Of a stretch of DNA of 64,000 bases, positions 35,358-40,910 are shown one piece after another. Each line of letters begins with the position of its first letter. Within the stretch, counting starts at the first letter, position 1. This DNA is from Chitinophagaceae bacterium (GTDB lineage Bacteria; Bacteroidota; Bacteroidia; Chitinophagales; Chitinophagaceae). The stretch is taken from positions 297,447-361,446 of the forward strand of contig JBKBHA010000004.1 of assembly GCA_046297935.1 (NCBI GenBank). The letters are read 5' to 3'. Under the pieces are notes generated by a model. That model saw nothing but the letters and a program-made list of their open reading frames with translations, searched no databases and was not told the origin of the DNA. A program made the translations under genes and the position numbers.

Positions 35358-37478
35358 ATGTCGTCTGCAACGCCGTTCTATCCGGCCTCACCTGATCCGG
35401 TGCCTGTTCATGTTACAGCAGTTTCGCCTGGGTTTCGAAAAGAAGTGAAGAAGGTATTGGCAGGGATCGTTTATTTCGTTTTCATTTACCTGATCCTGCT
35501 ACTTGCCAGTTTGTTGTTGATTGCAATCTGTGGCTATCTCGGTCTTCTCACAGTTGTTAATATCGGGCATTTTCTCGGCATACTGGGTGGTATCGGATTG
35601 GCCGGGTTGGGAGTGATGGTTTTCATATTCCTCATCAAGTTCATTTTTTCGGTTAATCGCGTCGATAGGTCAGGCATGCTGGAAGTAAAAGAATCGGAGC
35701 AGCCGGAGCTGTTTGCATTTATCCGCCAGGTGGCTTCCGACGCACAGGCACCTTTACCCGGGCGGATTTTTCTTTCTGCTGATGTAAATGCAAGCGTATC
35801 CTACAATTCCAGTTTTTGGAGTATGTTCTTCCCGATCCGGAAAAACCTGACGATCGGACTGGGTCTGGTAAATTGCCTTACCATCAGTGAGTTTAAGGCA
35901 GTGATGGCACATGAGTTTGGACATTTTTCCCAGCGCAGTATGAAACTGGGCAGCTATGTATACCAGGTGAACATGATTTTGCACAATATGCTGTTCAATA
36001 ACTCGGGTTATAGTCGTATGCTGACAGGTTGGGCAAATCTAAGCTGGGTGTTCGCCATTTTTTCCAATATCACTGTACAGTTTGCCCGAGGTATTCAGGC
36101 TATACTTACCAGCACTTATCAGGTCGTTAATAAGCGTTATAGCAGTTTGTCGCGCGAAATGGAATTTCATGCCGACGCAGTAGCAGCAAGTGTGAGTGGT
36201 TCCGAGTCATTAGTTACAGCCCTTCGCCGCTTAGAGCTGGCCGAGGCAGGTATGCAAACTACTTTGGCCCATTGCAGCAAAATGCTTGAACGCAAAAAAT
36301 ACTGTTCCAATTTTTACCCTGTACAGCGATATGCCATGCTGGAGCTGGCAGCTGAACTTGGTATTCCTCTTCAGAATCAGCTTCCGCAGGTAGGCGATGA
36401 TTTTATTTCGGCATCAGAAGGGCAGCGGGTAAATGTAAAAGATCAGTGGGCTTCGCATCCTGCCACCGAAGATCGGGTAGCAGCCCTGCGGAACCTGAAT
36501 GTGGTGGCCGAGTTGAAACCTGAATCACCCTGGATACTGTTTCGGCGTCCCACAGAACTTCAGGAACAATTGAGCAGGCTTGTATATGGCGACGCGATCA
36601 ACAACAGTGAATTGCAATTGCTTTCCGTAAGCGAAATTGAAAGGGAATTGAAGGATGAACGCCAGAAAGTTCTGTTGCCACAAAGCTTTAATGGCTTTTT
36701 CGACAACAGAGTGCTTACAGAAATAACTGAGGAAGAGTTGCAGCAATTAGAGCCCGACCCAACTTTGAGCTGGCTGACTGTGTTTGATCCCGAAAAAAAG
36801 GGACAGGCTCGCAAGCTCGCTTATCTGAATGCTGATATTGAGTTACTGGCCGCAATTGAAAGCAAAGAAATAAAAACCGAAACCTTCGACTTCGATGGCG
36901 GCAAATATCCATCAGCACAGGCCGGCACTATTCTGGAGCAACTAAGGCAGGAGAAGGAAATGATGATAAAGGAGATTGCTGAGAGTGAGAAAAGAATGAT
37001 TCAGCTGACTATGCAACTGGCTGAAAGCAACGGTAGTTCGGCAATCGAAGTCCGCGAGTTGTACCGCCAATTTTTTCAATGGCAGCGTGAGCTGAGAGAA
37101 GACGGTGTAAAAGTGCAGGAAATGGTTCAAAGCCTGGCTCCCATTTTTCAGGGAGTGGCTTTGCCTAATGAACAGATCAGCGCCATTGTGAGTGAACTGA
37201 AAGATCGCCACGAACCTACCATGATGCGTTTGATCGGCCGCTGGCGCGACCGGAAGGCATTTGCAAAACTCGACACAGAACTATTACGCGAGCTCCACAA
37301 TTTTGAATCAGCCAACAGGGTATATTTTACCGGTGAAGAATTTTTGGAAGGCGACTTTGAAGTGTTGAACCGGTTCACCGGATTGATTTGGGATCAGTTA
37401 GGTGAATTTATGTATGAGCGCCAGTTGATGTTGATTCGCGAGCTGGATGGCTGGCGTCCGAAAGAGACAGTAAATTAG
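35358..37478 (+). CDS. M48-family (Ste24/HtpX-like) zinc metalloprotease with N-terminal TM helices and a ~350-aa coiled-coil-rich C-terminal extension
   Basis: MAHEFGHFSQ HExxH motif plus downstream EFHAD third ligand. 706 aa. Confidence 0.65.
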   Translation: MSSATPFYPASPDPVPVHVTAVSPGFRKEVKKVLAGIVYFVFIYLILLLASLLLIAICGYLGLLTVVNIGHFLGILGGIGLAGLGVMVFIFLIKFIFSVNRVDRSGMLEVKESEQPELFAFIRQVASDAQAPLPGRIFLSADVNASVSYNSSFWSMFFPIRKNLTIGLGLVNCLTISEFKAVMAHEFGHFSQRSMKLGSYVYQVNMILHNMLFNNSGYSRMLTGWANLSWVFAIFSNITVQFARGIQAILTSTYQVVNKRYSSLSREMEFHADAVAASVSGSESLVTALRRLELAEAGMQTTLAHCSKMLERKKYCSNFYPVQRYAMLELAAELGIPLQNQLPQVGDDFISASEGQRVNVKDQWASHPATEDRVAALRNLNVVAELKPESPWILFRRPTELQEQLSRLVYGDAINNSELQLLSVSEIERELKDERQKVLLPQSFNGFFDNRVLTEITEEELQQLEPDPTLSWLTVFDPEKKGQARKLAYLNADIELLAAIESKEIKTETFDFDGGKYPSAQAGTILEQLRQEKEMMIKEIAESEKRMIQLTMQLAESNGSSAIEVRELYRQFFQWQRELREDGVKVQEMVQSLAPIFQGVALPNEQISAIVSELKDRHEPTMMRLIGRWRDRKAFAKLDTELLRELHNFESANRVYFTGEEFLEGDFEVLNRFTGLIWDQLGEFMYERQLMLIRELDGWRPKETVN

Positions 37479-37883
37479 AAATCGTTTGCCATGAATCTTG
37501 CAAAGCGCATTAATTGCAGGATACCGGAAGCTGCGATATTGCTGATCGAATTGAAGTCGGCTGAAAACAATTCCTGAGCCGATTGAAAGAACCATACACC
37601 AATAATCCAAATTTATCACCCTTGCAAGCGCAGATTGAATTGGGACTTCCAGCGAATAGGGCATTGCCGACATCAGTTCTAAAAATTAATGTTACTGGCT
37701 TAGACCCTGCTTTGGTTAGAAGAGTAACAGGAAATCTACCGGGTATGGGTGCTGGAGGAGGGACCGAGTTCCTGTTCAATCAAAAGATACCATCAAACCT
37801 AATTCAAAGTCTCAAATAGGAGTAACAATGAGTAGTAGAATTAAGACGGCGGTCGAATTTTTGAATGAAGGCAGGGCGGCCTT

Positions 37884-39221
37884 TTGTCGGCGCCGGACCA
37901 GGCAGGCATCGGCGGAAAAGGCCTGACGCTTACAGACCTGCAGACCCTGAACAGTGGATTAATTCCTTCTGGCTTTATTCGAGGAGCTAATGGTGAGTCC
38001 GGCACAGTACCAAAAGCTTACATCAACTTCATACTGTTGGATGATCAGTTCCGGTTCGTCAGTGGGGATTTCAGTCGGGTAGGCGCTAGTGGCACTGTTA
38101 AGGATCATTGGTATACTGACGGGCAGTTGCAGGATATTGACGTGGCAAAAAATGGGTATCTTTATGTGTACGTGAGCAACGAGAGCAATGCTGATGTGTT
38201 CTTTGATAATCTGCAGGTAATACACACGCGAGGGCCAATTCTGGAAGAAACGCATTACTACCCGTTTGGACTTACTATGCAGGGAATATCTTCCAATGCA
38301 CTATCGTTCGGAAGTCCTGATAATAAATTAAAGTTTAACGGGAAGGAAGAACAACGACAAGAATTCTCTGATGGAAGTGGACTTGAATGGTTAGACTATG
38401 GAGCAAGGATGTATGATAATCAGATTGGTAGGTGGCATGTTCAGGATAAGTTTTCAGAAGTAATGTATGGCTGGAGCCCTTATCAATATGTATTTAACAA
38501 CCCACTCAGATTTGTAGATGTAAATGGAGATGTTCCCGGTCCGCCCCTCTTTTATTTTAAGACAAGAGATGATGCAGCTTATTATTGGGCGTTAATATAT
38601 TCGAAGCAGTCTAATGCTGAGCAAGCAGAATATTCTGGCATTATATATAGCTTTACACATAAAGGCGAAACTGTTTATGGCTTCACGAAAGGATTTAGGT
38701 ATTATGAGGACGAACATCCAGGTAAAAAACCATTTAGGAAGTCACCTGGTCCCGGTGATAATCCTGCTGTAAACTGGGACGACGAAATGCCAGAAGGGGC
38801 TAAAAAGGAAGCCCATATTCATATTCACCATGCTGCAACTGGAAAAGGTAATGATACATTTTCTTGGGGGCCTCGCTCGGATGAAGAATTAATGCCTAAA
38901 CACCCGGACTTGTGGTGGTATTTGGTTAATAATATCGGAGAGCTAAGAGTTAGAAGAGGTGCGAAAATATTTGTAGGCCATGGTGCAGAAAGATTAACAT
39001 GGGGTAATTTTTACGAGACAACGAATCTAGATAATCGACCGACTACTACTTCGTTGTATGAGGGTAACCGAAAAATGTATCACACATTATCTGAAAAGTA
39101 TGAGTGGACCTTTCAATTAACTCAGCTGTTAATGAGTTCTTATATAAATTCCTTGCATCAGGGTTCGACGGAAGAAAAGCAAGATGTAAAAAAAGTTGAA
39201 CCACCTAAGAAAGCTTTTTAA
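37884..39221 (+). CDS. Orphan, 5'-truncated RHS repeat-associated core C-terminus fused to a C-terminal polymorphic toxin domain of unknown family
   Basis: RHS core-end motifs [18 protein letters not shown] ... [19 protein letters not shown] (a degenerate DPxGL). There is an in-frame stop just upstream of the listed TTG start, and no N-terminal RHS repeats. The CT half is AT-rich. Confidence 0.65.
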
Positions 39222-39230
39222 AATGTGTCT

Positions 39231-39893
39231 ATGAAATATTTTTATCTGATTGTCGTAACCTTATTTGCAATTTCCTGTACTAACAATATATGTAAGAGTA
39301 AGCCAATATCTGGTTATGTTTATATTGATATGGAAAAAGAAATAAGCTTGTCACAGTTAATAGAAATTCGAAAAACCCTTATTGAAGCTGAGATAGACAG
39401 GATGGGGGAGATTTCTGGATATGATTCAAACAAACATTCTTTGCAGCTAAAAATCTATACATCGTTTGGCGATACAGAAAATGAAAAGTTGTTCGTTCTT
39501 GAAAAAATTAATAGCAAATGGATGGCCAAAGAGCTTCGATACCAATTTGATATTAGTGCGATGCAGGATACTATATACATTAGAATTAATGCCATCAAAG
39601 ACCTTACACCACAGATATCCTGGGAGGCGTTTTACGATTCCCTTAGGAGCTCGAATATTTTCAAACTATCAGGTGACCATACGTTAGAAGGATATGAAGA
39701 ATCAATGGGTATAGTTGATGGAGTGGAGGTGGTTTTTAGGGATAAATCAGACAGTAATCGGTATAGTTATAGGGAAATTGAGTTAAATAAGAAGTTCCGT
39801 GAAGTGGAAGATTTGGATAAGGTATTAAATTTTATAGAAGGTACTTTCGATGGAAAGTATATTTATAGGTCTTGTTTTTTTAGGGAGAAATAA
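39231..39893 (+). CDS. Putative cognate immunity protein (lipoprotein-like) for the upstream RHS-CT toxin
   Basis: Starts 9-12 nt after the toxin stop, on the same strand. Very AT-rich. N-terminal signal/lipobox-like AISCTNN. No known family. Confidence 0.4.
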   Translation: MKYFYLIVVTLFAISCTNNICKSKPISGYVYIDMEKEISLSQLIEIRKTLIEAEIDRMGEISGYDSNKHSLQLKIYTSFGDTENEKLFVLEKINSKWMAKELRYQFDISAMQDTIYIRINAIKDLTPQISWEAFYDSLRSSNIFKLSGDHTLEGYEESMGIVDGVEVVFRDKSDSNRYSYREIELNKKFREVEDLDKVLNFIEGTFDGKYIYRSCFFREK

Positions 39894-39967: not shown

Positions 39968-40910
39968 ATGAGAGTAGCCATGAAGGTTACGGTAATCAAC
40001 AGGAAGCATGCTGGCTATTTAAACAAGCCCGAGATTGCAGGCTTGTCCGTAAGGCATAACCTCGATTTGTGTAACGGTACACAGGTTGAGAAGTTCGTAA
40101 GGCGGGTTGCTGAAAAACTGGAGACCTGCCTGACGGCAGGCAGGCAGCATAACTCTTACAAAGGCTATTGCAGACATAACAGGCCAGGTAGAGCAGTTCA
40201 GGTTACAGCAACTGGGTAAGCAGGAAACCAGAAAGGAGAAGGCTTTAAGCAATGAGGAACGGGAAACAGCCATTCAATTCTTGGAACAAAAAGACCTGCT
40301 GCAAGGAACCAATGAAATGATAGGTAAAAGTGGTGTGATTGGAGAAGAGACAAACAGGCTGCTGATGTACCTGATATTTGCCAGCAGAAAACGAGAGCAT
40401 CCTTTGCATATAATTTCACTCGGTAATAGTGGCATTGGAAAAACTTACTTACAGGAGAAGGTAGGAGAATTGATACCGGAAGAAGATAAGGTAGAGATAA
40501 CTACGCTGTCAGAGAATGCCCTGTACTACTTTGGTCAACGGGAATTGCAACACAAGCTGGTATTGATAGAAGATTGGGATGGTGCAGCGAATGTACTATA
40601 TCCATTGAGAGAGCTGCAAAGCAAAAAGCTCATCGCCAAAACGCTGGCAAAGAAAACAACTACTGGTGAAACTAAGACCGTTCACATCAAGGTAGAAGGG
40701 CCAGTTAGCGTAGCAGGATGCACTACGCAGGAACAGGTATATGAGGATAATGCTAATAGAAGTTTTCTGATTTACATTGATGAGAGCAGGGAGCAGGATG
40801 AAAGGAAAATGGCTTATCAGCGTAGTAAAAGTGCACGGAGAGTAGACCGGGTACAGGAAAGTAAAACAAAACAGTTATTACAGAACACACAAAGAGTAAT
40901 GTTCAAGTGA
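39968..40910 (+). pseudogene. Frameshifted P-loop NTPase gene (primase/helicase- or D5/DUF3987-like). Likely a mobile-element remnant.
   Basis: Walker A LGNSGIGKT and Walker B LVLIED in the 40281.. ORF. The reading frame continues upstream into 39968..40219 in another frame. Confidence 0.4.

Follow-up and report, generated by a model that had tools for sequence, protein, structure and literature searches.

An orphan RHS toxin tip of a Chitinophagaceae bacterium is a divergent member of the DUF4329/Tox-JAB family and adjoins a predicted lipoprotein gene

We analyzed a 64-kb stretch of Chitinophagaceae DNA (contig JBKBHA010000004.1; hereafter the window) and the C-terminal tip (CT) that is encoded there by a fragment of an RHS gene. 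The tip comprises 229 amino acids (aa), numbered here from nucleotide (nt) 38532, and is followed directly by a gene for a predicted lipoprotein (Table 1). We find that the tip is a divergent member of a recognized, purely predicted toxin family, DUF4329/Tox-JAB. The family has been known as a predicted toxin family since 2012; what is added here is the divergent member and an unannotated family of lipoprotein partners. Taken as a whole, we consider it likely that the locus holds an RHS polymorphic toxin tip with a JAB/MPN+ metal-dependent hydrolase domain, belonging to a divergent Bacteroidota branch of DUF4329/Tox-JAB-2, that the lipoprotein confers immunity with action or interception of the toxin in the cell envelope, and that the copy in the window is an orphan cassette.

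Family and fold of the toxin tip

Translation of 38532-39221 (+ strand) reproduces exactly the peptide quoted in the first-pass annotation of this DNA, and this peptide forms the last 229 aa of the open frame 37884-39221. The start given there is the true core/tip junction, since the RHS core ends right before it: an NCBIfam search placed a TIGR03696 (Rhs_assc_core) match at aa 125-215 of the frame (E 3.4e-14), and the tip begins immediately 3' of this core. Such a location, C-terminal to RHS repeats and core, is the one expected of DUF4329/Tox-JAB-2.

Homologs of the tip exist, though they are few and distant. A phmmer scan of 1.84 billion cluster representatives returned 56 proteins at E<=1e-3. 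One of these is the protein of the window itself and another is a spurious low-complexity match; the others, about 54 homologous clusters, are 30-46% identical to the tip and all align with it over CT aa ~9-145. For the analysis of motifs, the window sequence was aligned with 45 homolog domain segments that share 24-38% identity with it (n=46). Invariance is seen in exactly five columns of this alignment, namely E33, H97, H99, S111 and D117, and these five residues match the JAMM/MPN+ signature E…HxH…S…D. The first-pass annotation had pointed to the cluster HIHIHH and to GHG/GHGAE motifs as possible metal or catalytic sites. Its first suggestion stands for the two central histidines, H97 and H99, which form an HxH of the catalytic type and are conserved far beyond chance; H95 and H100 are variable. 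The second suggestion has to be given up: GHGAE is not part of the conserved domain, an 83%-identical homolog has GDGAE in its place, and the motif falls in a region modeled with a predicted local distance difference test score (pLDDT) below 50 from residue 150 onward.

The same alignment links the tip to a named family. At E<=0.1 in Pfam, 34 of the 46 aligned sequences match DUF4329 (best 7.8e-19) and two match Prok-JAB weakly. More distant full-length relatives from Chitinophagaceae pass the DUF4329 cut-off of 28.6 bits, with 64.8 and 50.6 bits, and the tip of the former (locus L006) aligns with the window tip by BLASTP at 9e-11, motif residues included. Two JAB clades have been described as RHS toxin tips, Tox-JAB-1 and Tox-JAB-2; the latter, given as "(DUF4329 in Pfam)", is found on RHS proteins and has the motif E, H[ST]H, S, D (Zhang et al. 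2012, PMC3482391).

Structure prediction with a fold search had been proposed in the first-pass annotation, which could assign the tip to no known toxin fold from the sequence alone. AlphaFold2 run with the 46-sequence alignment gave a model with pLDDT 83.4 and a predicted template modeling score (pTM) of 0.77, in which residues ~10-148 are well ordered and the tail is disordered. The domain has the MPN alpha/beta core fold of the JAB/MPN+ (JAMM) superfamily, a fold of zinc hydrolases to which deubiquitinases are related. All conclusions on the fold are drawn from the alignment-based model, as a single-sequence AlphaFold model (pLDDT 33) was unusable. A viral fold search returned weak JAB/RadC-like matches only, the best at E 2.5e-3. 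Fold and motif thus both place the tip in the JAB superfamily, and its zinc binding and hydrolase activity are predicted by analogy.

When the tip was searched as a single sequence, little of this was visible. Pfam gave a sub-threshold match to DUF4329 (PF14220) only, at E 0.015 and 15.7 bits; no significant match was obtained in NCBIfam, in PDB sequences, in a word-indexed search of 5.8 billion proteins, or by tblastn against plasmids and phages; and the single protein as a query retrieved no locus in GTDB genomes. Related loci were located with a 12-sequence sub-alignment, which found nine in GTDB, all from Chitinophagaceae, Chitinophagales or Bacteroidetes. The empty single-sequence and word-based searches are what would be expected under the view of the first-pass annotation, that the tip belongs to no recognizable family and carries a novel His-cluster metal site in a fold without known relatives. 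At the family level this view is refuted by the homologs, the invariant JAMM motif, the DUF4329 matches, the fold model and the BLASTP alignment with a bona fide family member, and we regard it as highly improbable. The deaminase fold is structurally related to JAB, and a nucleic-acid or nucleotide deaminase toxin was therefore weighed as well; it was rejected as equally improbable because the [HC]xE and PCxxC zinc-binding motifs are absent from the tip.

The conserved domain is followed by a variable tail. Among family members these tails measure 40-110 aa and are modeled as disordered. The extreme C-terminus of the window copy, ...EPPKKAF (39195-39218), is echoed in otherwise divergent members as EEPPKKAF, APPTKKAF and KKLRAF (P0010, P0011, P0002, L014), and other members end in ...CPVFY/SPVFY or in basic tails of the PPxWLK type.

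The lipoprotein partner and the proposed mode of action

The gene directly downstream of the tip encodes a protein with a lipoprotein-type N-terminus (MKYFYLIVVTLFAISC). An open reading frame (ORF) of the same family, 210-229 aa long, lies directly 3' of the JAB tip gene in 11 of 11 loci in which the downstream region is present, and the partner was also seen directly downstream of the tip in L014, L015 and L017. Across an alignment of the partners (n=11), neither the start Met nor the lipobox Cys varies, columns are on average 43% identical, and conserved blocks include GFDSLQIRIWYGY, P[KR]SGW, TLPD and YRIY. None of the 11 proteins matches Pfam even at E<=10, and the window partner has no match in Pfam, NCBIfam or PDB sequences; PDB profile matches of the partner family were dismissed as spurious coiled-coil or signal-peptide matches. 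Database entries for the family are all named "hypothetical protein", and an identical partner is recorded from a Chitinophagaceae metagenome-assembled genome. In L016 (7911-8657, 8765-10816), a partner homolog has no JAB toxin gene upstream and stands directly before a different RHS C-terminal fragment; this copy looks like an orphan immunity gene.

Judged by its synteny and sequence, the lipoprotein partner is probably the immunity protein of the toxin. In Bacteroidetes, a surface-export signal of lipoproteins provides the basis for reading the residues that follow the Cys. These residues are neutral or basic in the partner, not acidic, which suggests that it faces the periplasm. A partner that is exported and held by a lipid anchor makes the cell envelope, and not the cytoplasm, the most likely site of the toxin's action or of its interception.

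By analogy with JAMM enzymes, a Zn2+ ion would be held by H97, H99 and D117, a zinc-bound water would be activated by E33, and S111 would stabilize the intermediate, resulting in hydrolysis of an amide (peptide or isopeptide) bond. Full-length relatives begin with a signal-peptide-like N-terminus (judged by eye), followed by DUF6443, RHS repeats and core, and DUF4329; in the proposed mode of action, the toxin would be the cargo that a Sec-exported DUF6443-RHS protein delivers at its C-terminus, and the downstream lipoprotein would neutralize it. In its most specific form, the tip would be a periplasm-acting JAMM (iso)peptidase that cuts an amide bond of the envelope, in a peptidoglycan stem or cross-link or in a protein tether, and that is neutralized in place by an undescribed family of lipoprotein immunity proteins. 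We offer this form tentatively, as one possibility. What the data show are the homology, the invariant motif, the fold, the architecture and the synteny with the partner; from these we infer metal binding, amide hydrolysis, the envelope target and immunity.

Several points weigh against a JAB-type peptidase acting in the envelope. At the level of the family, the window copy scores 14.1-16.5 bits on DUF4329 (E 0.0085-0.047), under the gathering cut-off of 28.6, and its closest relatives are likewise below the cut-off. A search with the family profile against all PDB sequences gave AfJAMM (1oi0/1r5x) as its sole match, aligned on HxH…S, which speaks for the family assignment, but at a weak E of 1.5 that is not significant alone. 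The motif of the window copy is spaced HxH-x11-S-x5-D, as opposed to the shorter canonical HxH-x7-S-xx-D; its S-D spacer exceeds the canonical SxxD, which some relatives keep (FSPGD). At the level of function, the literature searched yielded no experiment on what any Tox-JAB toxin does, and the peptidase chemistry is therefore an analogy. Zhang et al. 2012 (PMC3482391) favored a RadC-like nuclease role for Tox-JAB. Proteobacterial DUF4329 tips have cytoplasmic partners, namely Imm-NTF2-2 or CdiI-like immunity proteins. For the lipoprotein, immunity role and localization are both read from synteny and sequence only.

In the main rival explanation, a tip of the same fold is a nuclease in the target cell's cytoplasm, as proposed for the RadC clade of JAB, and the lipoprotein blocks uptake at the envelope instead of neutralizing the enzyme at its site of action. 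The nuclease role has been carried onward as "RNase" in annotation papers, and a 2024 preprint describes the catalytic activity and substrate of Rhs-Tox-JAB-2 as still unknown. We rate this explanation as rather unlikely.

The orphan cassette and its genomic setting

Alignment of the RHS fragment with a full-length RHS protein of 1606 aa from Chitinophagaceae (L007) is confined to residues 1149-1525 of the latter, so that only the last quarter (~25%) of an rhs gene is represented. The fragment lacks an ATG at its 5' end, and a short out-of-frame ATG ORF precedes its frame. The window contains no other RHS homology and hence no full-length rhs gene. The locus has the composition of an orphan rhs C-terminal module: the core is present, the N-terminal shell, the repeats and the start codon are absent, and the presumed immunity gene is adjacent. 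Together with this gene, the fragment is part of an insert of ~3.5 kb between an M48 peptidase gene and dnaX, with a G+C content of 32-41% vs ~50% in the flanks, at the far edge of which lies a truncated P-loop gene of mobile-element type (Table 1).

Table 1. Features of the orphan RHS cassette (positions in the window; CT, residue numbers of the tip)
Feature	Position	Strand	Basis or remark
Orphan RHS C-terminal fragment, 445 aa from TTG	37884..39221	+	Frame open from 37869
RHS repeat-associated core, junction where toxin tips are exchanged	38256..38531	+	TIGR03696 Rhs_assc_core
JAB/MPN+ (JAMM-like) domain, divergent DUF4329/Tox-JAB-2 member	38556..38966	+	CT aa ~9-145; homologs, motif, fold
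Invariant Glu E33, predicted general base of JAMM motif	38628..38630	+	Alignment
HIHIHH, CT residues 95-100	38814..38831	+	Translation, alignment
Invariant HxH, predicted metal ligands	H97, 38820-38822; H99, 38826-38828	+	Alignment
Invariant S111 (38862-38864) and D117 (38880-38882), S...D of JAMM motif	38862..38882	+	Alignment
Variable C-terminal tail, CT aa ~146-229, ends ...EPPKKAF	38967..39221	+	Mostly unconserved, low-confidence model
GHGAE, CT residues 149-153, inside variable tail	38976-38990	+	
Predicted lipoprotein, 220 aa, presumed immunity protein (MKYFYLIVVTLFAISC...)	39231..39893	+	Starts 10 nt after toxin stop codon
Truncated P-loop gene, mobile-element type	40281..40910	+	PF27228 recorded for identical gene in L001

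Orphan rhs-CT/immunity modules are known as a reservoir that recombines with main rhs genes. An arrangement of this kind is seen in L002, where the main rhs gene is followed by orphan tip/immunity pairs, one of them of this JAB family. The window copy is probably such a recombination reservoir, with its toxin part silent rather than expressed, because only the last quarter of rhs is present, without an ATG and with no full-length rhs gene within 64 kb, in DNA of low G+C that adjoins a mobile-element remnant. The partner immunity gene may still protect the host cell.

Most known copies of the tip appear to share this state. In P0003, P0006, P0007, P0017, P0026, P0028, P0034, P0037, P0046 and P0047, the protein is called as beginning with the Met that is conserved in the RHS core motif YYPFGLTM-x-GISSKA, which implies that most known copies are 5'-truncated orphan modules or contig-edge fragments and not full-length toxins.

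Selection and recombination were assessed by comparing the window with L014, where the copy is 83% and its partner 70-71% identical. The ratio of nonsynonymous to synonymous substitution rates (dN/dS) is 0.035 in the RHS core, 0.09 in the JAB domain, 0.20 in the C-terminal tail and 0.25 in the partner gene; the corresponding synonymous divergence (dS) is 3.5, 0.6, 0.95 and 0.69, and nucleotide identity is 77%, 87%, 75% and 79%. The cassette has experienced purifying selection. The drop in dS from 3.5 (37884-38531) to 0.6 (toxin domain) indicates that a recombination breakpoint lies close to the core/tip junction or at it, and since dS in the core is ~6x that in the tip, the cassette appears to have moved between different rhs backbones.

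These values also bear on the explanation that the fragment is a decaying pseudogene left by a mobile element, whose toxin part has no present function. The missing start ATG, the restriction to the last ~25% of rhs, the lack of a full-length rhs gene in the window, and the position of the insert between two housekeeping genes (M48 peptidase, dnaX) and next to the truncated P-loop gene are all in keeping with it. It is opposed by a frame that stays open over 445 codons, by the intactness of all five catalytic residues, by the dN/dS of 0.09 relative to the copy elsewhere, and by the reservoir role of orphan modules. We see decay as possible rather than probable; as an explanation it bears on whether the fragment is expressed, not on what it is, and can hold together with the assignment of the tip to a divergent DUF4329/Tox-JAB branch.

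Further observations concern the neighborhood. The extended P-loop fragment received no Pfam assignment in the window search. In L004 (1-2503), a 514-aa protein of the same Pfam family as the P-loop gene has two tyrosine-integrase genes as neighbors and is located upstream of a further orphan JAB module, which hints that the cassettes travel on an integrative element. Between the RHS fragment and the M48 peptidase gene is a 78-aa ORF without a Pfam match (37583-37819, + strand; ...LPANRALPTSVLKINVTGLDPALVRRVTGNLPGMGAGGGTEFLFNQKIPSNLIQSLK*), which might represent the end of a further degraded gene, of a toxin or a cassette, or else noise. Between the partner gene and the P-loop fragment, an 83-aa ORF of higher G+C (39968-40219, + strand) has no Pfam match and is possibly non-coding. 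The M48-family peptidase (35358-37478, + strand; 706 aa, with an N-terminal membrane segment) exceeds the 186-position Pfam M48 domain and has a C-terminal extension of ~330 aa with weak coiled-coil-type Pfam matches only. A scan for the Bacteroidetes -7 promoter motif TAnnTTTG gave no + strand site in the cassette or upstream of it, and the window as a whole is not enriched in the motif relative to chance.

Relation to described systems and significance

The tip is closest to Tox-JAB-2 (PF14220, DUF4329), in that both have the JAB fold and the E, HxH, S, D motif and immediately follow the RHS core. It differs in its sub-threshold score (16.5 bits) and in having HIH in place of H[ST]H. Moreover, the partner here belongs to an unannotated family of exported lipoproteins and is neither Imm-NTF2-2 nor CdiI-like, and all members of the branch that were found come from Chitinophagaceae, Chitinophagales or unclassified Bacteroidetes.

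In other respects the locus resembles Tox-JAB-1 and Imm65, a Bacteroidetes-only pair described with RHS repeats, a Sec signal ('T2SS') and a lipoprotein immunity protein that has a signal peptide and a lipobox (Zhang et al. 2012, PMC3482391). Here too the loci are restricted to Bacteroidetes, contain RHS, show a Sec-like signal (by eye) on the full-length protein and encode a lipoprotein partner. In contrast to Tox-JAB-1, none of the 46 domains matches a Toxin-JAB1-type Pfam model at E<=0.1 (the presence of this model in the library copy is unconfirmed), and the NxxxE element is not conserved, as the 46-sequence alignment has no conserved N four residues before E33. The partner has the lipoprotein character described for Imm65, namely an invariant Cys after a hydrophobic N-terminus in 11 of 11 sequences, but its membership in the Imm65 family finds no support in Pfam at E<=10. 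On the basis of published descriptions and Pfam models, we therefore file the branch as a divergent Bacteroidota DUF4329/Tox-JAB with a lipoprotein partner of the Imm65 kind, not as Tox-JAB-1.

The fold and the full catalytic motif are also those of JAMM/MPN+ isopeptidases (AfJAMM, PfJAMM1, Rpn11, AMSH, BRCC36 and the bacterial Cap3 and BilC). Sequence identity to these enzymes is 8-19%. The tip has longer spacers in HxH-S-D and a conserved SPGP-containing insert before the HxH strand, and its context is that of a secreted antibacterial toxin, in which no ubiquitin-like substrate is known. As a genetic element, the cassette is comparable to the orphan rhs-CT/immunity modules of Enterobacteria in having a 5'-truncated rhs with core homology, a tip, an adjacent immunity gene and evidence of cassette exchange, and the classical array of main rhs plus orphans is seen in L002. 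Unlike those modules, the orphan in the window lies at least ~25 kb from any main rhs on either side, between housekeeping genes.

Among Rhs effectors, Tox-JAB/DUF4329 tips are widespread; PAAR-RhsA-DUF4329 candidate effectors were reported by one survey in >150 Salmonella serotypes (PMC10469887). The locus described here is otherwise an ordinary orphan RHS toxin/immunity cassette, and the clue that its branch adds is the strictly conserved, exported lipoprotein partner, which argues for the envelope as the site of action. If the tip is indeed a periplasmic JAMM peptidase, it would be the first enzyme of the JAB fold with a demonstrated attack on the cell envelope, and it would contradict the nuclease role that was proposed for Tox-JAB in 2012.
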